IMG/VR virus record: IMGVR_UViG_3300017565_000001
Location: 237,741-301,740 of that record
DNA length: 64,000 bases
From: a virus
Taxonomy: Duplodnaviria > Heunggongvirae > Uroviricota > Caudoviricetes
Strand: one strand, 5' to 3'
In this document: one piece after another, positions 26,195 to 53,280 of the stretch
Position numbering within the stretch: position 1 is the first letter of the stretch
Layout of the letters: each line of letters opens with the position of its first letter
Made by a program: the position numbers and the translations under genes
Notes under the pieces: generated by a model
Database searches by the model: none
Told to the model about the DNA's origin: nothing
The model's input: the letters and a program-made list of their open reading frames with translations, nothing else

Positions 26195-27685
26195 TTACTT
26201 GATCAGCGTGTACCAGGTGAAGCCATCACGCATGACAGGCTTGACCTTACCTGCGCGAATAGCCGCATCCACTGCCGCAAAGTTGGCACTATTTCCACCA
26301 ATCAATGATGCCATTTGGCTCTTGGAAAGCAGGACTTCGCTAGGAAGCGTAGTGTCAGCAACCGCTTCCTTCACAACAGGCTTGGTGACTTTCGACGCAG
26401 TACCAGTGGGGAAAGGCCATGTTGTGTCCACGGGGTTGGTGGCAGGAATATGCGGTGCCGTGGGAGCCCTATAGGCCGGATTGCGCGACTCACTCATAAT
26501 CTGACCGTCCGAGCAACGAACAATCCTTGAAGAGTAAATGTGGCTGGGAACACCGGCCTTGATTTCGTTCTTCAGATCGTCAAAGTCATAATCCATACCA
26601 GCGTATTCATAATCAGCATCGGCTGAAGTACGTTGCTCCAAAGTGTATTGCGCATCCACTACCGTGGGACGATTTTCCTCCCACGTAAGGTTTTCAGCTT
26701 CGTACACGGTAGCACCGGTCTCGGAATTGATAACACAAACCGAGAACACGTTGTCCTCTTCCAGAAGATCTTCTGCCATTTCAAGAGCCGAATCCTTGTC
26801 CAGATAATCTGATTCTAGACGGTATTCAGCATCGGGCGAATTGCGATAACAAACCTTGAAGTCATCTTCATCACAAGTGTGATCTCCAAATGCATCAAAG
26901 CCCTCTTCGTCATCAAATTCAGGATCGTCGGGATCCTGGGTATTGTAAACGACGCGGTTCTTACCCAGATCTAGATCGTCAACTGGTACTTCACCAATGA
27001 CTTCGTACTTGCAAGTACGCCCCTTGGCATTGTTGTAGTCAGTCGGAATGGCTACCACATCGGCGGGGTTGATCTTCACCAACACAACACGAACATGTTC
27101 GGGATCAGACGAGCCATAATAGGGCAGGTACGACATGGAGCAGAAGTGTAGGCCGGCCGAACAAGTGCGGGACTTTTCTTCGTCAACCAGATTACGGCGC
27201 ATCGTAACTACCTGTCCGATTGCATTGCTAATCTTTCCAGTGTAGATGTCCGTGTAATCAGCGTTTACCTTCTTGTATGCCACAAAGTGACCATCATCTG
27301 TGATTGGCAGATCACACGCTTCCAGGAAGCCATACAGTTCATCAACTGCTCGCTTGCTGGGGTTCAGCATCAAGTTATCCAGGAACGCAACCATGGGCTT
27401 GATGTCGAAGCCTTCAGCTTGCATCTCCAGAATGCGTTGAGTCAGAGTGTTGTGTACTGCGAAGTCATCGTAATAGACAACACCATCCGCGACACGGATG
27501 AGGCCTTGAGAAAAGCTCACGATCGCGCGGCTGATATTGATGAGTTCTTCAACCAGATCAAAATCACCAACCTTCAGTGCTTCACGAATTTCGTGATACT
27601 TTTGGTGGGAATCTTCCGTGATTGTGTATGTCTTGCCCTTCAACATCACATTGATGGACGTGGGAGTTAGTCGATATGGAATCAT
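26195..27685 (-). CDS. rIIB: rIIB-like protein with C-terminal extension
   Basis: NPSKRAVDELYGFL, PITDDGHFVAYKKV, CSAGLHFCS, VKINPADVVAIP, KGRTCKYEV. Confidence 0.9.
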   Translation of the reverse strand: MIPYRLTPTSINVMLKGKTYTITEDSHQKYHEIREALKVGDFDLVEELINISRAIVSFSQGLIRVADGVVYYDDFAVHNTLTQRILEMQAEGFDIKPMVAFLDNLMLNPSKRAVDELYGFLEACDLPITDDGHFVAYKKVNADYTDIYTGKISNAIGQVVTMRRNLVDEEKSRTCSAGLHFCSMSYLPYYGSSDPEHVRVVLVKINPADVVAIPTDYNNAKGRTCKYEVIGEVPVDDLDLGKNRVVYNTQDPDDPEFDDEEGFDAFGDHTCDEDDFKVCYRNSPDAEYRLESDYLDKDSALEMAEDLLEEDNVFSVCVINSETGATVYEAENLTWEENRPTVVDAQYTLEQRTSADADYEYAGMDYDFDDLKNEIKAGVPSHIYSSRIVRCSDGQIMSESRNPAYRAPTAPHIPATNPVDTTWPFPTGTASKVTKPVVKEAVADTTLPSEVLLSKSQMASLIGGNSANFAAVDAAIRAGKVKPVMRDGFTWYTLIK

Positions 27686-27733
27686 GTTTGATCCTGTTAT
27701 TGTTTATTGTTGTTCTGGTGCTTTGTTGCCATT

Positions 27734-29926
27734 TTACAACGAACTGTCATCACTCTGCAATGCTTGTTCATCAACACTCTTAACATAGTTGATGACCGTC
27801 ATACGATCTTTCTGATCATACGAATATTTCGTCAAGAGCTTCAACATGGGATAATTGTCAGTGATGGCATTCCACTCACTCACAAAGTCGATTTCAACCA
27901 AAGTCTGCGAATCTTCTTTGAAATTAAGGAGTTTGGCCAGTTGATGCAATTCGACCTGGGTAGCTGTCTGAATTTGATTTGCTTCTTCGATCCGTTCACG
28001 GAACTTGCGAATTGGGTGGTCTTCAGACAACTCATTTACTGCCACAGCAGCCCATGAAGAGTAATGTGACTCGGACGAATGGCGCCAGGCTTGATATGCT
28101 TGACGACGTACAACCGCGCCTGCCACATCAACCTTACTGAGCTTCTTCTTCAAACGATCTTTGATATCGTCGTAAAAATTAATCCACTTGTCACTTTCGT
28201 CAAATTCTTTGGTCTTGGAACGCAATACGCCAAGCACCACTTCATTATCGGCATATAGACCAGTTGACCTCGCCATAGTCAACACATCAGCAAATCGTTG
28301 ATCCTTACGATCGCCATCGCACGGGTAATTACGCAGAATTGGCAAGTAAACGCCACCATCTTCAAAATCCAAATCGTCCGGTTCGAGGTCAGAACTGCCG
28401 TAATGTGGATTCAAGAATTCCTGATAAATCGTGCGCTTGCCACCGCTGGACGGAGTGCTACGCGATGGCAATGGATCAAGCGTTGACGTGTTGGTAGTTT
28501 GCGGGTCACCAAGCGCATTCAACAGTTTCTTGACATCAGCATCAGAACCCTTGATGGTGTATCCTGATGCCAGCGTTCCGCTCTTCTTGATGTGTTGTTT
28601 GACTCGAGTGGCGCCACCGCGCTTCAAGTCATCAATGAAGATTCCCACCGTGCCACTGGGGCTAACAGCATAGGTTTCTTTGACGTTAGCAGTGGCAAAG
28701 GTTGCCCGACGATTCGCACGGTAACTAGTCGACAGTGTTACTTCGACTGATGGATAGTTAGCCATGGACAATTTAATGACATTGTCGTATGGCAAAAACC
28801 GTTTGTTCTTCCACATGAACGGATTGTCATTTGTGATGACAGAACTCAATACTGAAACCTGGCTGAGGATTGCGCTAAACTTGCAACGAGCTTCCCATTC
28901 AGTCGTGCAAGCATCAATCACGTCCTTGAACTTCAGGGGGAGTTCAGCCGCAACAACCTTCAGAGCATTCTTGATATTCTGAATTGTGGGGCCCTTGTAG
29001 CTGAGGGTTTCGCGCGAAGCGGTTACGTCCAGATCACCGATGGGAAATTGGATAACCAAGTGCGAACGCAGCAGGTTCCAATAAAGTTGACCTTCAGTGG
29101 TGCTATGATCCAAATCCAGAGCGTATGCATCAATGGGGTAGGCAACCTTGCCTTGAATGGCCATGGCACCGTGCGAACCATACGGTGATGCGGTGTTTAG
29201 CACCCAGTTGGAGCCTGAGACCTTGGGGTTCAGAGTAGCCACTTGCCAGTTGTGGGCACCAGTGACAACAGGTTGCGGGTCAAACCATTGCAGGACCAGC
29301 TTGGCCTTCTCAGCAAACACGTGATAATCGTTCTTCTTGACGGGCATGGACACTTCAAGGCCATTGCCTTCATCCGTGGGTTCACGACCCAGCTCAACAA
29401 TTTCAGGTTCATCCTGTTCGTTGATGTAAGCGGTGAAGCTATACTTCATGCCATCTTTACGGCTGATTACCGTGAAGCTGTCCACATAGCTGAAAGGAGA
29501 CTTTGAGCCCAGACCCAATGCACCGATGAAATCGTTGCTGGTGGTCTTGGTGGATTTGAAGAACGTATTGTAGATACCACCAACAAAGACTCGTTCTTCC
29601 TTACCATCCTCATTCGTGACCGTCTTCCAGTAACCACACATTTCTTCTGGAGTGAGGCCAATACCGTAATCACGGATGGTCAGCCAGGGTTCCAGAGCTG
29701 TGGGGAGATGTACAGAGAAGGGCTTGTCAGGGCATCCCGCGGCGATGTGAGCATCGTACGCATTGCAGGACAATTCACGCAGAATTGCCTTGGGCTTATC
29801 GGGATACAGGGAGTCACTGAGGACGCGAAAGGCTTTGCCGTTTGCTTCAATGGTGAACTTGCTTTCGTTCAACCCGCCACTTCTTTCGATGGCGTTTACT
29901 TTACCTTCAATGATCATGCTGGGCAC
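27734..29926 (-). CDS. rIIA: rIIA-like protein (N-terminal GHKL ATPase)
   Basis: KAFRVLSDSLY, RELSCNAYDAH, IRDYGIGL, GALGLGSKSPFSY, SRETLSY; adjacent to rIIB. Confidence 0.9.
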   Translation of the reverse strand: MPSMIIEGKVNAIERSGGLNESKFTIEANGKAFRVLSDSLYPDKPKAILRELSCNAYDAHIAAGCPDKPFSVHLPTALEPWLTIRDYGIGLTPEEMCGYWKTVTNEDGKEERVFVGGIYNTFFKSTKTTSNDFIGALGLGSKSPFSYVDSFTVISRKDGMKYSFTAYINEQDEPEIVELGREPTDEGNGLEVSMPVKKNDYHVFAEKAKLVLQWFDPQPVVTGAHNWQVATLNPKVSGSNWVLNTASPYGSHGAMAIQGKVAYPIDAYALDLDHSTTEGQLYWNLLRSHLVIQFPIGDLDVTASRETLSYKGPTIQNIKNALKVVAAELPLKFKDVIDACTTEWEARCKFSAILSQVSVLSSVITNDNPFMWKNKRFLPYDNVIKLSMANYPSVEVTLSTSYRANRRATFATANVKETYAVSPSGTVGIFIDDLKRGGATRVKQHIKKSGTLASGYTIKGSDADVKKLLNALGDPQTTNTSTLDPLPSRSTPSSGGKRTIYQEFLNPHYGSSDLEPDDLDFEDGGVYLPILRNYPCDGDRKDQRFADVLTMARSTGLYADNEVVLGVLRSKTKEFDESDKWINFYDDIKDRLKKKLSKVDVAGAVVRRQAYQAWRHSSESHYSSWAAVAVNELSEDHPIRKFRERIEEANQIQTATQVELHQLAKLLNFKEDSQTLVEIDFVSEWNAITDNYPMLKLLTKYSYDQKDRMTVINYVKSVDEQALQSDDSSL

Positions 29927-31610: not shown

Positions 31611-32612
31611 TTAGATGTCGTATAAGCCAACAGCTTCACGTATCTTCTGAACCCGCTCAGACACTAGGTTTCTTGCTCTGGATGCACCAGCCAGAAGAAT
31701 GTCACGGACCTTGCTGGGTGCGGCCATGTAATATTCATACTTGTCACGCATAGGGCTGAGCTCGCGTTCCAACAAGGCAACGAGATCTTTCTTGGCGTCT
31801 CCCCATCCCAACCCATTATCAAGGCTGTCTTTGAATGCTTGAGCTTCGTCATCTGTGGAGAATGCACGATAGATTTTGTAAACGTTTGAATTCAACGCAT
31901 CTTTTGGTTCTCCTGGTAACAAAGAATCGGTGACAATCCGCATCACGTTTTTCTTCAATGCCTTACTACCACCAGCAAACAACGGGATGGTGTTGTTGTA
32001 GCTCTTGGACATCTTGCGGCCGTCAAGACCGGGCAGTACATCAGCAACAGTTGACACTTGTGCTTCGGGTAAATCAAAATGTTGGCCGTAAACATGGTTG
32101 AAACGTTGAGCGATGTCTCGAGCCATCTGAATGTGTTGAATCTGATCGTAGCCGACTGGAACCGTATTTGCATTGAACAGTAGAATATCAGCCGCCATCA
32201 ATACAGGGTAGGAATACAACCCCATACTGATACCATCGTCTACATCATGCTCCAACTTGTTGTTTTGGTCGACTGCGGCCTTATAAGCATGGGCGCGATT
32301 CATCAGCCCCTTGGCAGTCACACAACTCAGAATCCAATTTAGTTCTTGGATTTCGGGAATGTCTGACTGTCGGTAAAGAGTCACATGATCGGGATCCAAT
32401 CCAGCGGCGAGCCACGAAGACGCAATTTCAAGTCTTGACTGCGCCACCCTTGCCGGTTCGTCACATTTGATGAGAGCATGATAGTCAGCCAGAAAGAAGA
32501 ACGATTGTGTATTGGGCTGTAGACTTGCCTGAATCGCGGGACGAATGGCACCAGCATAATTCCCCAGATGGGGAATTCCTGTTGTCGTGATACCAGTGAG
32601 GATTCGTTTCAT
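31611..32612 (-). CDS. trpS: tryptophanyl-tRNA synthetase
   Basis: TGITTTGIPHLGN, YPVLMAADIL, VPVGYDQIQH, KMSKS. Confidence 0.97.
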   Translation of the reverse strand: MKRILTGITTTGIPHLGNYAGAIRPAIQASLQPNTQSFFFLADYHALIKCDEPARVAQSRLEIASSWLAAGLDPDHVTLYRQSDIPEIQELNWILSCVTAKGLMNRAHAYKAAVDQNNKLEHDVDDGISMGLYSYPVLMAADILLFNANTVPVGYDQIQHIQMARDIAQRFNHVYGQHFDLPEAQVSTVADVLPGLDGRKMSKSYNNTIPLFAGGSKALKKNVMRIVTDSLLPGEPKDALNSNVYKIYRAFSTDDEAQAFKDSLDNGLGWGDAKKDLVALLERELSPMRDKYEYYMAAPSKVRDILLAGASRARNLVSERVQKIREAVGLYDI

Positions 32613-40724: not shown

Positions 40725-41198
40725 ATGTTCTACACTCAAGTACTGAAATTTCCACGCTTGCCAGACCACCTGGTACAAAAGGCCCTAGACAGCATCCGGG
40801 ACTATGAAGTTCAGGATGAATTCGAGAAGACCGGAAACTACCGCTGGCATCTGCTTGATCCTCAGGTCCAGGAATGGCTCAACACCAATGTTCTGGAGGG
40901 TGCCTGGGGTATTCAAACAAACACTGATGACAAAGACCTTGATGTCCACGTCGATCGTTTTACTCCCACAAGGATCCTGTATACCCTGGATCCTGGTGGT
41001 CCCAATGTCACAACCACTTTCTATGAAAATGATCGAAAAACTGTCATTGAATCAATTGTCCTGCAACCACATACCTGGTACGCCCTAAAGACTGACATTT
41101 ACCACGCCGCCCATGGTATCGTACCAGGCCAAACCAGAATCGCCATCACTGTACGATTCTTTACCAATCACGAACCCAAGCCGCTCAAACCGCGTTGA
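40725..41198 (+). CDS. putative 2OG-Fe(II) dioxygenase / cupin-fold protein
   Basis: HVD...YHAAHG...RIAITV pattern; TAAATA upstream. Confidence 0.6.
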   Translation: MFYTQVLKFPRLPDHLVQKALDSIRDYEVQDEFEKTGNYRWHLLDPQVQEWLNTNVLEGAWGIQTNTDDKDLDVHVDRFTPTRILYTLDPGGPNVTTTFYENDRKTVIESIVLQPHTWYALKTDIYHAAHGIVPGQTRIAITVRFFTNHEPKPLKPR

Positions 41199-42132
41199 TT
41201 CTGATCACTTCCCGGGGAGCATGAACAACACCCAGGCCTCGTCCCACACTTGCTTTTGCCAGTTCGGGATGTTTGTTCATCCAATCCTGAACGTACCACA
41301 GTTGTCCACAGCCACCACCGATGTCATCTTGTCCCGCGGGATCAAAACAACGAACGCTGAAGCCATGAGCCAGTAGACGGGCCATGAAACCTGTTGCCAG
41401 TTCACGCTGGCGTACATTTGCGGCAGCAACCGATTCATCGCGTTCACACACCACGCTCACGGTTGCTTCCCAGACCTTGGGATCAAAGCGGGCGGCGATT
41501 CGATCTGCGTCAGCCTGGCTAGTATTTGCTTCGTGAGCGCAGTAGTTGAAGAAGGGCTTCCGTCCCGTGGCAGCAAACCATGATTCACCAGCAGCCGCGA
41601 TCTCGTCCAGGTTCAACTTGGCTTTGAACGGAACCAGCTCATTCCTGGCTTCATCCGTACTTTCATGCACGCTGAATTGGAGCCCCACCATGGGTACTTC
41701 AGCACTCAGGGCATTCACACGCTCGTAATCAACCTTGGGAGCGCTGGTGCTGATCAACAGGGCAAAGCGGGGATATTTGGCATGTAGGATGCGAATCGCT
41801 TCGGACAATCCTTGAAAGTTCAGCAACGGTTCACCCATCGACATGAACATGATCTGACACTTCTGCACTTTCGTGACATCGATGTTTCGATCAGCGAACA
41901 GGTAATCCACTTGTGCGACGATTTCTTCAGCGGTAAGACTACGAACGAATGCATCACCAGCACCACAGAAACGGCAGCCGACTGGGCAACCACTTTGAGT
42001 ACTGCAACATATTACCGTTCGATCTTCGTATGTGGGATATTTGTAGAGCACGGCTTCAGCAACCGCATTATCGAAATCGAAAACGTATTTGCTGACGTTT
42101 TCGTCCGATGAATCTACTCGTTTGACTTGCAT
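41185..42132 (-). CDS. RlmN/Cfr-like class A radical SAM RNA methyltransferase
   Basis: ICCSTQSGCPVGCRFC (CxxxCxxC plus upstream Cys), MSMGEP, SVHE, GCGQL; GGAG SD before ATG 42132. Confidence 0.85.
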   Translation of the reverse strand: MQVKRVDSSDENVSKYVFDFDNAVAEAVLYKYPTYEDRTVICCSTQSGCPVGCRFCGAGDAFVRSLTAEEIVAQVDYLFADRNIDVTKVQKCQIMFMSMGEPLLNFQGLSEAIRILHAKYPRFALLISTSAPKVDYERVNALSAEVPMVGLQFSVHESTDEARNELVPFKAKLNLDEIAAAGESWFAATGRKPFFNYCAHEANTSQADADRIAARFDPKVWEATVSVVCERDESVAAANVRQRELATGFMARLLAHGFSVRCFDPAGQDDIGGGCGQLWYVQDWMNKHPELAKASVGRGLGVVHAPREVIRINAV

Positions 42133-42235
42133 GCCATTTCTCCGTGCTTTTGATGCACCCATGGTACAATGAAATGGCAAGCTGTAAAGAGGAAGGTGGT
42201 TGCAAAATCAAATTATTTCACAACACCACCCCATG

Positions 42236-43283: not shown

Positions 43284-43358
43284 TGGTGCTCCCAGTTGGA
43301 CTCGAACCAACACTCCCGGTCTTATGAGGACCACGCTTTGCCTTTAAGCTATAGGAGC
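43284..43358 (-). tRNA. tRNA with CAU anticodon (probably Ile2; elongator Met not excluded)
   Basis: GCTCCTA...TGGTC-CTCATAA-GACCG...GTTCGAGTC...TGGGAGC-ACCA cloverleaf with encoded CCA. C4-G69/C5-G68 pairs fit TilS substrates; no initiator features. Own promoter (TTGATT...TACAAT) and terminator (43252-43279). Confidence 0.92.
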
Positions 43359-43397: not shown

Positions 43398-44222
43398 TTA
43401 GTCTTCATTTGCCTTGATCACGAAGCTTTCGATACCCAACAGATCCAGAGCGCTGACGGCCAGGTACTTGTGACGGCTCCAATACTTGTTGCGATCCTTG
43501 CATTCCCGATACCACTCATTGATCTTCACCATGTCCTCAGCCGTAGGAGTGTAGACGAAGCTCAAGAATTGTGAGTGAGACTCACTGATATTGTAGTACG
43601 GAATGCTCAAGATGCGATCTTCTGCACTCACGGGTTGATAGGACCGACGTTCAAGATCCTTAAAGACAACACGATTGTCTTTGCGCAGGACCTCCAGAAC
43701 CTTATTCAGGTCATAGTGGCCATTGTGCATGTTGCCATTCATGTAGGTATACAGGATCCCTTGTGGCAAAAAGTCACCGTTGAAGTTCAGCCAGCTGTGG
43801 TCGCGAGGATCAAACCGAACAAGAACAACATCCCTGGTGGATGCAACCTCCCAAGGGTCACATTTTTCATACTCTTGCAACAGGGGTTCGAATTCCCTGG
43901 AGCCGTAGAAGTGTTTGCCGATGATGTCCAACATGTTCTGATCACCCAAATACAAATATTCATTGGGGAACAAATTGGTGATGGACTTCAGCTTACCAGC
44001 TGCCATCTTTTCGGCATCAACCAACGAACAGAAACTGGCGTTTCCTTGATGCACTTCGCCCTTGTATCCACTGAACACCTTGGGCGGCTTCTTGCCTTCA
44101 ACCATTGCCGATGTGGCATTACGGTAGATGGCGACACCGTTACCGATATCCATGTATTCAAACGTCTGAGTGTGTTCCACCACAGCCTTGAACGTGCTGG
44201 ATTTGATTTCACGCATCGCCAT
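43398..44222 (-). CDS. hypothetical protein
   Basis: 274 aa, AGGAG SD. Confidence 0.75.
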   Translation of the reverse strand: MAMREIKSSTFKAVVEHTQTFEYMDIGNGVAIYRNATSAMVEGKKPPKVFSGYKGEVHQGNASFCSLVDAEKMAAGKLKSITNLFPNEYLYLGDQNMLDIIGKHFYGSREFEPLLQEYEKCDPWEVASTRDVVLVRFDPRDHSWLNFNGDFLPQGILYTYMNGNMHNGHYDLNKVLEVLRKDNRVVFKDLERRSYQPVSAEDRILSIPYYNISESHSQFLSFVYTPTAEDMVKINEWYRECKDRNKYWSRHKYLAVSALDLLGIESFVIKANED

Positions 44223-44265: not shown

Positions 44266-44937
44266 TTACCACAACAGGTTAAAGTTACCACCCATCACTT
44301 TGTCGCAAGCTGCACTCTTACCAGTCACGTGATCTTTTACCTGGTTGTCCTGGAAACGATACGTGCGAATTTTATCACCACGCATACCAGAACCAACTTG
44401 GCTCTTACGAGTGCTTGCTTGTTCGGCATTGTGTACAGCGGTTGAATGCCCATTGAGGCGTTCCAAGATCGTAGTCTTAGCCTCATTTAGGGAATTTTCA
44501 CGACTGCGACACTGCGCGGTGGCCACCACCCCTGTTGCGATGTGGGTGATTCGGCAAGAGTTTTGATGTTTGTTTCTGTGTTGACCGCCCGCACCGGTAC
44601 CAGAATACCATTCAATCTTGAACTCGCGTTCGTTGAACGTTATCTCTTTTACTTCCTGGGGGTCAATTACTGCGACCGTAACCGTCGATGTGTGAACTCG
44701 ACCCTTACGTTCAGTGGGAGGAACTCGTTGGATTCTGTGTCCGCCGGGTTCATTGTTGAGCGCTGATAGATCATCCCCTTCAACCTCGATGGCAACATCG
44801 GCGGTGTGGACGTCAATCAGGCGGTGCTTTCAGCCGTTCTTGGTGAAATGCTTCATGTAAGCGGCAGCCAGATCCTGTGCAAACAGTCGGCTATCTTCGC
44901 CACCCTCGGCGGCGCGGATTTCAAGTACTCGTTTCAT
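44266..44937 (-). CDS. class I peptide chain release factor, RF1-like, lacking domain 1, with one in-frame TGA (44830-44832)
   Basis: One continuous frame: MKRVLEIRAAEGGEDSRLFA...KNG*KHRL...GGHRIQRVPPTERKGRVHTSTVTVAV...GAGGQHRNK...RGDKIRTY; AGGAG SD. Confidence 0.88.
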
Positions 44938-45065
44938 CTCGATCTCCTATTTGTTAGATGAAAATGAAGTCTACTGGCTAAACCACCAGAGATCAAGTAT
45001 TTACATTAGACATTTCCTTACATGATTCATGAATAAATATCTGGGTATCTTTCAAGGAGGGATAT

Positions 45066-45197: not shown

Positions 45198-45294
45198 CTG
45201 AGTTTTGGTAAAGGGCGTCCATAAATACGTGGACGCCCTTTTTCGTGGGTGGTCCCATGAGCAATTAGTTCATGGCTTGATGGATAGTGAAATC

Positions 45295-50958: not shown

Positions 50959-53280
50959 ATGAGTCGTCCCAATATCGATTATTCGGCAATCACCAACGTC
51001 CTCGGCGCAGCTCGCGACATCGCGGCTTCGTACTGTCACGAATACGTGACCATCGAGCACGTGACGAAGGCCATGATCGCCACCAAGGAAATCCAAGATA
51101 TCCTGCGGGCGATGAGCATCAACATCCAGTCGGTCGATGACAAACTGGACAATTTCTTCAACAGCTCGCTCTGCCCGGTCGCCCCTGGCATTGCGCCCCG
51201 CGAAACTACCGCGGTTGGTTCCCTGTTGCAAGGTACCGCTACTCGCGCGATCGCAACGGGCTCAAGCAAAATCGGTGTCGAATTGCTGCTGGTGGCAGTG
51301 ATGATGCAAGAAAACACCACGGCCTATGCGGCACTGACCCAAGCTGGTCTGACGCTGCTGGCGCTGAAGCAACATCTCAGCCACGGCGGTCTGTCGGCAT
51401 CCAGCGGGTCACCCGAGATGGTCGGTCCCGACGGTGAGCGCTCGCTGCGTGAGCCCACCAATCGTGAAGAAGCCGAAGCAATCCTGGCCAAGTTCACCGA
51501 AAACCTGAACAAGACCGCCGGTGAAGGCAAGATCGATCCCGTGATCGGCCGTGAAGAAGAAGTCGAAGCCATCGTGCTGGCAACTGCTCGCCGTTCCAAG
51601 AACAACGTGATCTTGACGGGTGAGCCCGGCGTCGGCAAGACCGCCATTGCTGAAGGCCTGGCAGTCAAGATCGTCAAGGGTGAAGTGCCCGAAATCCTGA
51701 AGAACGGCATCGTGTACAGCCTGGACATCGCAGCCCTGATGGCTGGCACCAAGTTCCGCGGTGAATTCGAAGAACGCATGAAAGCGGTGCTGAAGGCACT
51801 GACCTTCATCGAGTCGCCCATCCTGTTCATCGACGAAATCCACATGATCATGGGCGCCGGTTCCGGTTCCCAGGGCTCGATCGACATCGCCAACCTGCTC
51901 AAGCCGGCACTGGCGAAGGGCAAACTGCGCTGCATCGGTTCCACGACCAGCGAAGAATACCGCAAGCATTTCGAGAAGGATCGCGCACTGATCCGCCGTT
52001 TCCACAAGCTGGATGTTCTGGAACCCAGCATCGAAAATGCCAAGCTGATCATGCGCGGCCTGCGTACCTACTACGAAGAATTCCACGGCGTCACCTATAC
52101 GGATGAAGCGCTGGATCAAGCGGTGGAGTTGACTGCGCGTTACGTACAAAATCGCCAATTGCCCGACAAGGCCATCGACGTGATCGACGGTGCTGGTGCT
52201 CGCCAACGCATTCGCCCCGAAGAAGAAAAGCTGAAGGAAATCACTGGCGATCTGGTGCAATTCGAAGTCAGCAAGATTGCGAAGATCCCCGAACAAAGCG
52301 TCAAGACCGACGAGCGCACCAAACTCTTGAATCTGGATCGCACTCTGCGCCAGACGGTGTTTGGGCAGAACGGTGCAATCGAAACCCTGGTCGATGCTGT
52401 CATGATCGCCCGTGCGGGACTGCGCGACGACAACAAGCCCGCTGGTGCTTTCCTGTTCGTGGGTCCCACGGGTGTGGGCAAGACCGAAATGGTTAAAGCC
52501 CTGGCGACCAACCTGGGAGTTCCCATGATTCGCTTCGATATGAGCGAATACATGGAAAAGCATACGGTCAGCAAGTTGATCGGCAGCCCTCCGGGTTACG
52601 TGGGTCACGGTGACGGTGGCGCTGGTTCGGGTATGCTCACCAACGAAATCGAAAACAAGCCCCACAGCGTTCTGCTCCTGGACGAGTTTGAAAAGGCTCA
52701 CCCGGATATCCAGAACATTTTCCTGCAGGTCCTCGACGAAGGTCACCTCACGAACAGTAGCGGCAAAACCGTTCACTTCAAGAACGTGACGATCATCATG
52801 ACCAGCAATGCGGGTGCCGCACAAATGCAAAAGACGTCGGTGGGCTTCAGCACTGGTTCCACGAACACGGTGGAAGCTGGCATGGATGCGATCAACAAGA
52901 TCTTCCGTCCGGAATTCCGCAATCGTCTGGATGCTGTGGTGCGTTTCAATCCGCTGCAACCTGAAAACATGCTGTCGATCATCGACAAGATGTTGACCCC
53001 GCTGGAGACCAAGATTGCAGTCCGTGGTGCAAAGCTGGTTGTTCCCATGGACGTGCGTGATTGGATGGCCAAGAAGGGTTATGATCCCCTGATGGGCGCC
53101 CGTCCCGCTGCTCGTGTGGTGCATGAGAGCTTGAAGACCCCGCTGAGCCGCGCGATCATCTTTGAGCATGTGGGTGCTGGCACGACGATCACAGCTTCGA
53201 TTGTTGAAGACAAGGTGGTTCTGAACGTCACGCAAGCTGAAGTGGCAAAAGCGGCCCCCGCTGAATCCGCCGAAGCGTAA
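50959..53280 (+). CDS. clpA: ClpA-like AAA+ unfoldase
   Basis: Clp-N, GEPGVGKT, GTKFRGEFE, GPTGVGKT, PPGYVG, VGF (IGF-type) loop; no ClpB middle domain. Confidence 0.92.
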   Translation: MSRPNIDYSAITNVLGAARDIAASYCHEYVTIEHVTKAMIATKEIQDILRAMSINIQSVDDKLDNFFNSSLCPVAPGIAPRETTAVGSLLQGTATRAIATGSSKIGVELLLVAVMMQENTTAYAALTQAGLTLLALKQHLSHGGLSASSGSPEMVGPDGERSLREPTNREEAEAILAKFTENLNKTAGEGKIDPVIGREEEVEAIVLATARRSKNNVILTGEPGVGKTAIAEGLAVKIVKGEVPEILKNGIVYSLDIAALMAGTKFRGEFEERMKAVLKALTFIESPILFIDEIHMIMGAGSGSQGSIDIANLLKPALAKGKLRCIGSTTSEEYRKHFEKDRALIRRFHKLDVLEPSIENAKLIMRGLRTYYEEFHGVTYTDEALDQAVELTARYVQNRQLPDKAIDVIDGAGARQRIRPEEEKLKEITGDLVQFEVSKIAKIPEQSVKTDERTKLLNLDRTLRQTVFGQNGAIETLVDAVMIARAGLRDDNKPAGAFLFVGPTGVGKTEMVKALATNLGVPMIRFDMSEYMEKHTVSKLIGSPPGYVGHGDGGAGSGMLTNEIENKPHSVLLLDEFEKAHPDIQNIFLQVLDEGHLTNSSGKTVHFKNVTIIMTSNAGAAQMQKTSVGFSTGSTNTVEAGMDAINKIFRPEFRNRLDAVVRFNPLQPENMLSIIDKMLTPLETKIAVRGAKLVVPMDVRDWMAKKGYDPLMGARPAARVVHESLKTPLSRAIIFEHVGAGTTITASIVEDKVVLNVTQAEVAKAAPAESAEA

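Follow-up and report, generated by a model that had tools for sequence, protein, structure and literature searches.

A conserved in-frame UGA in a predicted short RF1-type release factor gene of huge phages, and its probable readthrough

How a phage gene for a class I release factor could yield its protein when a stop codon interrupts its reading frame is the question raised by a locus in a 424,529-bp phage genome (an IMG/VR record with terminal repeats and 47.7% G+C, hereafter G000), of which a stretch of 64,000 nucleotides, referred to as the window, was analyzed. The gene, located at window positions 44266..44937 on the minus strand, comprises 223 codons followed by TAA and encodes a putative short release factor of the RF1 type (short RF1). 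Translation of the window gave a single continuous frame for it, in which the sole internal stop is a TGA at codon 36 (44830..44832, minus strand; GGC TGA AAG), at the position of the Trp in the G-W of RF1. A Shine-Dalgarno (SD) sequence, AGGAG, is located 6 nt 5' of the ATG (44944..44948, minus strand), and the nearest ATG, GTG, or TTG 3' of the TGA is a GTG at 44529 (codon 137), 100 codons further on and past the GGQ catalytic motif (codons 117-119; 44581..44589, minus strand). A preliminary description of this DNA had reported one frame with a good SD and a lone TGA at codon 36, and every detail of it that we checked was right. Its argument that the full-length protein requires UGA readthrough was likewise borne out, with no start codon for 100 codons and the GGQ already passed by then.

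Downstream of the short RF1 gene and on the same minus strand are a gene for a 274-residue protein that has its own SD and no family match (43398..44222), which is possibly part of the same operon, and a gene for tRNA-Met(CAT) (43284..43358). Tail-fibre-like genes begin at 45205, divergent from the short RF1 gene. Elsewhere in the window, at 26195-29926, 50959-53280, and 41185-42180, are rIIB and rIIA homologues, a homologue of a large ATP-dependent protease (phrog_4871), and a radical SAM protein.

The protein that would result from readthrough was matched by the Pfam model PCRF over residues 4-88, a range that spans the stop (E value of 1e-24), and by RF-1 over residues 98-203 (2e-18), confirming the earlier observation of release factor homology on either side of the TGA. 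Among the NCBIfam models, those of prfA gave 198.6 and 192.4 bits, that of prfB 119 bits, and that of prfH 45.6 bits, and the protein stayed under every full-length cut-off (198.6 versus 400 for NF001859, and 45.6 versus 166.65 for prfH). A full RF1 (PrfA) has about 360 residues with an N-terminal domain 1 for the interaction with RF3, a size and a domain that short RF1 does not have: its alignments to solved RF1s begin only at residue ~87 (Thermotoga maritima) or 112 (Escherichia coli), indicating that domain 1 is absent, and just upstream there is only a 42-residue ORF without a PCRF match, so that domain 1 is not encoded there. In these alignments, codon 36 coincides with the Trp of G-W in the solved RF1s of T. 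maritima and Streptococcus mutans, as the preliminary description had placed it. The recognition loop reads Q-R-V-P-P-T-E-R-K-G-R-V-H-T-S and agrees with the RF1-type pattern QRVPxTE..GR.HTS; its P-P-T tripeptide (codons 73-75; 44713..44721, minus strand) corresponds to the RF1-type PxT motif for stop codon recognition, and the SPF motif is absent. In an alignment that included bacterial RF1s (A1), P73 was invariant and T75 was conserved in at least 90% of the sequences. The GGQ was invariant in the same alignment and in 76 relatives, and the relatives also retain the other RF1 recognition elements, namely the AEGGED tip of the domain 2 helix (44893-44910, minus strand, in G000), Q-R-V-P-P-T-E, and H-T-S.

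An AlphaFold2 model of the readthrough protein had a pLDDT of 92.9 and superimposed on the ribosome-bound RF1 of Thermus thermophilus with a TM score of 0.93 and an rmsd of 1.8 Å. Its secondary structure consists at the N-terminus of a strand (residues 2-9), a helix (14-33), and a second strand (37-43). Codons 1-35 (44833..44937, minus strand) accordingly cover the first strand and helix of domain 2, and residue 36 falls between helix and strand inside this domain, so that the 35-residue product of termination at the TGA is a domain fragment and not a module; judging from the model, it is unlikely to serve as a release factor by itself. Taken together, the motifs, the higher score with prfA than with prfB, and the alignment starts agree with the preliminary description in characterizing short RF1 as a predicted RF1-type class I release factor without domain 1. 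Its expected stop codons are UAA and UAG, its action would not require RF3, and, being of the RF1 type, it should not read UGA. Peptide release is known not to depend on domain 1, and a truncated RF1 functions in vivo (PMC1586002).

A lone stop in a gene of this kind could have arisen by chance or by an assembly error, both of which were ruled out by the presence of the same TGA across independent assemblies, including those of cultured isolates. A scan of IMG/VR yielded 253 stretches that encode relatives of short RF1, and the first 80 related loci fetched from them, with 61-73% identity, all carried the same TGA. When all the loci gathered were considered, TGA stood at the Trp codon in 110 of 115 distinct family sequences, and it was also found in contigs from NCBI, ENA, JGI, and Logan and in three cultured bacterial genomes. 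The dN/dS was about 0.16 for codons 2-35 and about 0.11 for codons 37-223, values to be read with the saturation of synonymous sites (pS of ~0.8). Retention of the TGA in relatives and a dN/dS below 1 on both sides were two of the checks proposed in the preliminary description, and both came out in favor of it. The stop at codon 36 is thus real and under selection, with coding sequence on both flanks, and the locus exhibits the features that define programmed stop codon readthrough, namely a conserved stop, purifying selection on both flanks, and no alternative start.

The TGA is, furthermore, an exception within its own genome, which uses the standard code and is not recoded, as had been stated previously. 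The long ORFs of G000 (285) end in TAA in 140 cases, in TGA in 118, and in TAG in 27, and TGA terminates 41% of the long ORFs of G000 and 32% of those of G001, the closest complete relative (524 kb). Three scans of G000 for interrupted genes, in which codon usage was scored, shadow ORFs were filtered out, and candidates were tested for a start preceded by an SD upstream, each returned the short RF1 gene as the only stop-interrupted one; it was again the only convincing one in G001. Neither of the signs of recoding to code 4, that is, many genes with in-frame TGA and disuse of TGA as terminator, was found in G000, and no convincing amber-gated genes that might explain the presence of tRNA(CUA) were found in it.

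We also analyzed the nucleotides around the stop, where codons 35-41 of G000 read GGC TGA AAG CAC CGC CTG ATT (44815..44835, minus strand). Of 107 distinct family sequences, which are not independent of each other, 76 have A as the base 3' of the TGA, 24 have G, 7 have C, and none has T, and this base is constrained by residue 37; T follows 40 of the 118 genuine TGA terminators in G000. Analysis of synonymous sites in 32 diverse family sequences indicated that G35 is encoded by GGC in 27 of the 32, R39 by CGC in 23 of 27, compared with 9-45% at twelve other Arg sites, L40 by CTG in 16 of 26, and I41 by ATA in 15 of 19, indicative of selection on synonymous sites beside the stop in the family. 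Within the stretch CGC CTG AT (window 44815-44826), the synonymous sites of which are kept family-wide, CTG-AT creates a TGA in the +1 frame. With respect to RNA structure, RNAalifold detected no conserved structure around the stop in the 32 sequences (consensus energy of 0.0), and the z-scores for individual sequences averaged about -1. Neither a SECIS element nor a stimulatory hairpin is therefore likely here. An SD-like stimulator near the TGA was not seen by eye.

The exceptions in the family are informative as to how the site varies. Two lineages (P0121 and P0129) have TGG at the Trp codon and no stop, which speaks in favor of Trp as the residue belonging there. In L088 and L184, which are not sisters in the tree, the Trp codon is TGG and a TGA occurs four codons downstream. 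In a homologue from a Hahella MAG (L193:3001-3690; 57% identity), the Trp codon is TGG, and a CTT TAG C located five codons 3' of it is the point from which the release factor frame resumes in +1, without an obvious SD-like element 5' of this site. The short RF1 family was monophyletic against host RF1 (SH-aLRT of 100), and in a quick tree search, in which deep nodes are poorly resolved, the deepest branches carry TGA at the Trp codon with the exceptions on long branches. In a phage collection, a search for near-identical DNA gave no match and a protein search gave only matches of less than 40% identity to full-length RF1 and RF2, and the IMG/VR queries for distant lineages (P0125, P0127, and P0129) gave few or no usable loci. 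In the protein database (P0001-P0120), full-length family entries are those from short contigs of up to ~6 kb, and the five checked TGA-containing full-length entries can be translated only with TGA as Trp, indicating that the gene callers had chosen code 4; for long contigs, the database entry is a fragment of 167-187 residues. By splitting the gene or calling it with code 4, annotation systematically conceals the stop.

The family extends to cellular genomes. Short RF1 with the TGA was found in the cultured strains Jiella sp. LLJ827, Thalassospira xianhensis MCCC 1A02616, and Gemmobacter caeni DSM 21823, each of which also has a normal RF1 and RF2, and in sphingomonad MAGs, likewise with TGA at the Trp codon. 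In Gemmobacter, the gene is embedded in a 36-gene tRNA array and has Thg1-like, HD+AAA_33, and SIR2 genes nearby; this array falls within a 40-kb part of a chromosome contig (L242:1-20000 and L243:1-20000), has all its tRNA genes on one strand, also contains an AAA ATPase gene, and has a G+C content close to that of the host. In Jiella, the gene adjoins ispH and a thrB-like gene. In Thalassospira, a tRNA cluster located ~77 kb from short RF1 on the same contig includes a tRNA-Trp with a C27.A43 mismatch, and the lone host copy of tRNA-Trp has U27:A43. Of 81 loci in phage relatives, 50 have a DSP-type phosphatase gene within 3 kb, 14 a T4 Rnl1-type RNA ligase gene, and 10 an AAA_33 kinase gene (examples of such neighbours are at L011:3378-3869, L028:3284-4186, and L015:5347-5811). 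None of the three is beside short RF1 in the window, where no conserved neighbour is shared with the relatives.

These phosphatase, ligase, and kinase neighbours resemble a set for RNA repair and call to mind the pairing of PrfH with RtcB. PrfH (RF-H) is a release factor without domain 1 that is paired with RtcB, and it shares with short RF1 the lack of this domain and, in the relatives and Gemmobacter, the proximity of RNA-repair genes (Rnl1, AAA_33 kinase, DSP phosphatase, Thg1-like, and HD+AAA_33). Short RF1 differs from it in retaining the canonical PxT motif and RF1 recognition elements, in line with its prfH score far under the cut-off, and no RtcB-type protein was found among the neighbours scanned, which included the window flanks, the relatives, and Gemmobacter.

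For the decoding of the UGA, the tRNA genes of the phages offer several candidates. ARAGORN predicted 56 tRNAs in G000, including two tRNA-Trp(CCA) genes, both outside the window, and no tRNA(UCA) at default or mildly relaxed thresholds, low thresholds yielding intron-containing artefacts only. One of the two, tRNA-Trp2, has U11:A24 and G27.U43. In E. coli tRNA-Trp, G24A and changes of the 27:43 pair increase UGA reading, and both the Hirsh G24A variant and a tRNA-Trp with a 4-bp anticodon stem have been described (PMC13092985). The features of tRNA-Trp2 would be only a lead in this respect, and a uniform UGA-reading feature was not found in phage tRNA-Trp across the relatives, in which the features are mixed. 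Other tRNA genes of G000 are also unusual. The other copy, tRNA-Trp1 (L227; G000:C1:208896-208972), carries a linker of three nucleotides (T, C, A) from the acceptor stem to the D stem, and its acceptor stem contains two G.U pairs; a tRNA-like gene (G000:C1:215231-215318) has an 8-nt anticodon loop, to which ARAGORN assigned the four-base anticodon 'caca'; and the one tRNA(CUA) of the genome (L228; G000:C1:53129-53203, outside the window) has an anticodon arm resembling that of tRNA-Trp2.

A census of tRNAs in six complete or near-complete relatives with the gated gene gave a varied picture. G001 has no tRNA-Trp(CCA) and one Trp-like tRNA(UCA) with G73 and C27.A43; G003 has one tRNA-Trp(CCA) together with two tRNA(UCA) with A73; G002 has one tRNA-Trp(CCA) and two tRNA(CUA); G004 and G010 each have one tRNA-Trp(CCA) and one tRNA(CUA); and G005 has two tRNA(CUA) and no tRNA-Trp gene. 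All six and G000 therefore carry a suppressor-type tRNA (CUA or UCA) while using TGA as a terminator, and in at least two lineages a cognate reader for the gate is supplied by the phage. A permuted tmRNA was detected in 7 of 7 genomes, within ~3 kb of a suppressor-type tRNA in four of them, and this finding and the cellular homologues jointly suggest that the hosts are Alphaproteobacteria. In G000, the circularly permuted tmRNA (G000:C1:41648-42040, outside the window) has the tag ANDNVYAAAA, and no SmpB was found in this genome. The preliminary description had proposed that a TrpRS of the phage could tune the readthrough. The enzyme does exist (a class I W/Y synthetase at 31611..32612 on the minus strand; Pfam tRNA-synt_1b, E value of 6e-50), but its link to the gate is weak, as TrpRS was not found in any of the five complete relatives with the same UGA; it is possible that it acts as an accessory in G000 only.

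From these results, we propose, with a probability of about 0.7 for the model as a whole, that full-length short RF1 is produced by programmed in-frame readthrough of the UGA at codon 36. The UGA would most likely be decoded as Trp, in G000, which lacks tRNA(UCA), by near-cognate reading by tRNA-Trp(CCA), either that of the host or one of the two phage copies. RF2 would compete at the same codon, with the consequence that most ribosomes would stop after 35 residues, and the yield of the full-length protein would be set by the balance of Trp-tRNA versus RF2. The insertion of Trp, the level of readthrough, and any role in sensing or timing in this phage are what we infer. Counting against the model are the mixed features of phage tRNA-Trp, the lack of any tRNA-Trp gene in G005, and the failure to find a conserved stimulatory RNA structure. 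Programmed UGA readthrough by tRNA-Trp is known for the A1 protein of Q-beta, and a leaky UGA is known in Bacillus subtilis. The present case resembles them in that the UGA is in frame and usually precedes an A, that Trp suits its position, and that some elements have tRNA variants of the kinds described above (U11:A24 and G27.U43 in tRNA-Trp2 of G000, and C27.A43 in the Thalassospira array tRNA and the tRNA(UCA) of G001). It differs in that the classic events extend an already functional protein at its C-terminus, whereas here the stop gates the whole protein.

Whether the gate has a true regulatory role is, within this readthrough model, about an even matter. It is a reasonable inference that the stop reports RF2 activity or the supply of Trp-tRNA, as the preliminary description suggested; its further idea that the factor is switched on when host termination is compromised is speculation. 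A factor with RF1 output cannot relieve a defect in UGA termination, which leaves the sensing of RF2 without an evident purpose. The preliminary description did not notice the phage relatives with a cognate tRNA(UCA), the alternative recoding sites, the copies in bacterial genomes, or the sequence constraint beside the stop.

Several other explanations of the stop were weighed against the readthrough model. Under plain attenuation, a leaky UGA would do no more than hold down the synthesis of an additional and potentially harmful release factor, to a few percent of the translation rate, without sensing anything. Such a device would suit the known leakiness of UGA-A, the strong SD of the gene, and the failure to find either a conserved partner or an RNA structure; however, a weak SD or promoter would achieve the same, and the stop has been retained in 110 of 115 sequences, arises anew at +4, and gives way to a frameshift site in another lineage, and relatives carry tRNA(UCA), making this explanation rather unlikely. 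Another would have short RF1 recognize UGA and end its own synthesis when abundant, on the model of prfB, the RF2 gene, in which an in-frame UGA at codon 26 (CUU UGA C) is passed by a +1 frameshift stimulated by an internal SD. Both genes encode class I release factors, are interrupted early by an in-frame UGA, and need for their full-length product a recoding event in competition with RF2 termination, and the CUU UAG C +1 site of the Hahella MAG, which is the amber counterpart of CUU UGA C, would be self-sensing for an RF1-type factor. Short RF1 nevertheless stays in frame 0 at a different site (GGC UGA A), and the UGA is not its own codon: the RF1-like GG-E-D helix tip, Q-R-V-P-P-T-E, and H-T-S, with P73 invariant and T75 nearly so and no SPF, and 198 bits with prfA versus 119 with prfB render self-recognition very unlikely. 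With RF1-type motifs, short RF1 would not read its own gate, which would place it under cross-control by RF2 and tRNA supply rather than self-control of the prfB type.

The locus could also be regarded as a remnant or a minimal version of a module that switches the code from TGA stop to Trp by means of a suppressor tRNA, TrpRS, and RF1, as proposed for the Jade phages (Borges et al; bioRxiv 10.1101/2021.08.26.457843). The occurrence of TrpRS and RF1 in G000 and of a Trp-like tRNA(UCA) in G001 is consistent with this, and phage RF1, TrpRS, and suppressor-type tRNAs do occur together in jumbo phages, as in recoded ones. The genomes here are, however, not recoded, and the release factor gene alone is interrupted by TGA, with no further in-frame TGA gene in G000 and no convincing one in G001; moreover, TGA serves as the terminator of 41% (G000) and 32% (G001) of the long ORFs, a search of five relatives found TrpRS in none, and the Jade phage module is itself written in the standard code, so that such an origin is very unlikely. 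Insertion of selenocysteine, which UGA can encode, a protein split by reinitiation, as the division of the gene by gene callers on long contigs might suggest, a pseudogene, and an assembly error are jointly of nearly negligible probability. The position is that of Trp in RF1s and has no SECIS hairpin beside it (RNAalifold consensus energy of 0.0), no start codon follows the stop for 100 codons, purifying selection acts on both sides, and the same TGA recurs in dozens of independent assemblies, including cultured isolates.

To our knowledge, recoding-controlled release factor genes are represented by one textbook case, the +1 frameshift of prfB, and our literature searches found no published description of an in-frame UGA in short RF1. 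The readthrough gate would hence be a second and widespread design, in which an RF1-type factor is gated by in-frame UGA readthrough and sister lineages use a shifted UGA or an amber frameshift site. It would tie termination control to the suppressor-type tRNAs of phages with standard-code genomes, and it exposes an annotation artefact, in which long contigs split the gene and short contigs call code 4. More tentatively, and with considerable doubt on our side, short RF1 and a UGA-reading tRNA might constitute a portable two-part translational switch, in which the tRNA of the element itself licenses an RF3-independent terminator as part of a back-up decoding kit. If this is true, the reader would be tRNA(UCA) in some phages and may in others be a tRNA-Trp(CCA) with a weakened top pair of the anticodon stem or an A24-type D stem; the kit would comprise the tRNA arrays, tmRNA, and RNA-repair enzymes of jumbo phages and of the tRNA-array islands of Alphaproteobacteria, for use when the host translation apparatus is attacked or taken over; and short RF1 would be antagonized by the amber-suppressor tRNAs that most of these phages carry. 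The presence of the gate in both huge phages and cultured Alphaproteobacteria makes it amenable to testing at the bench.
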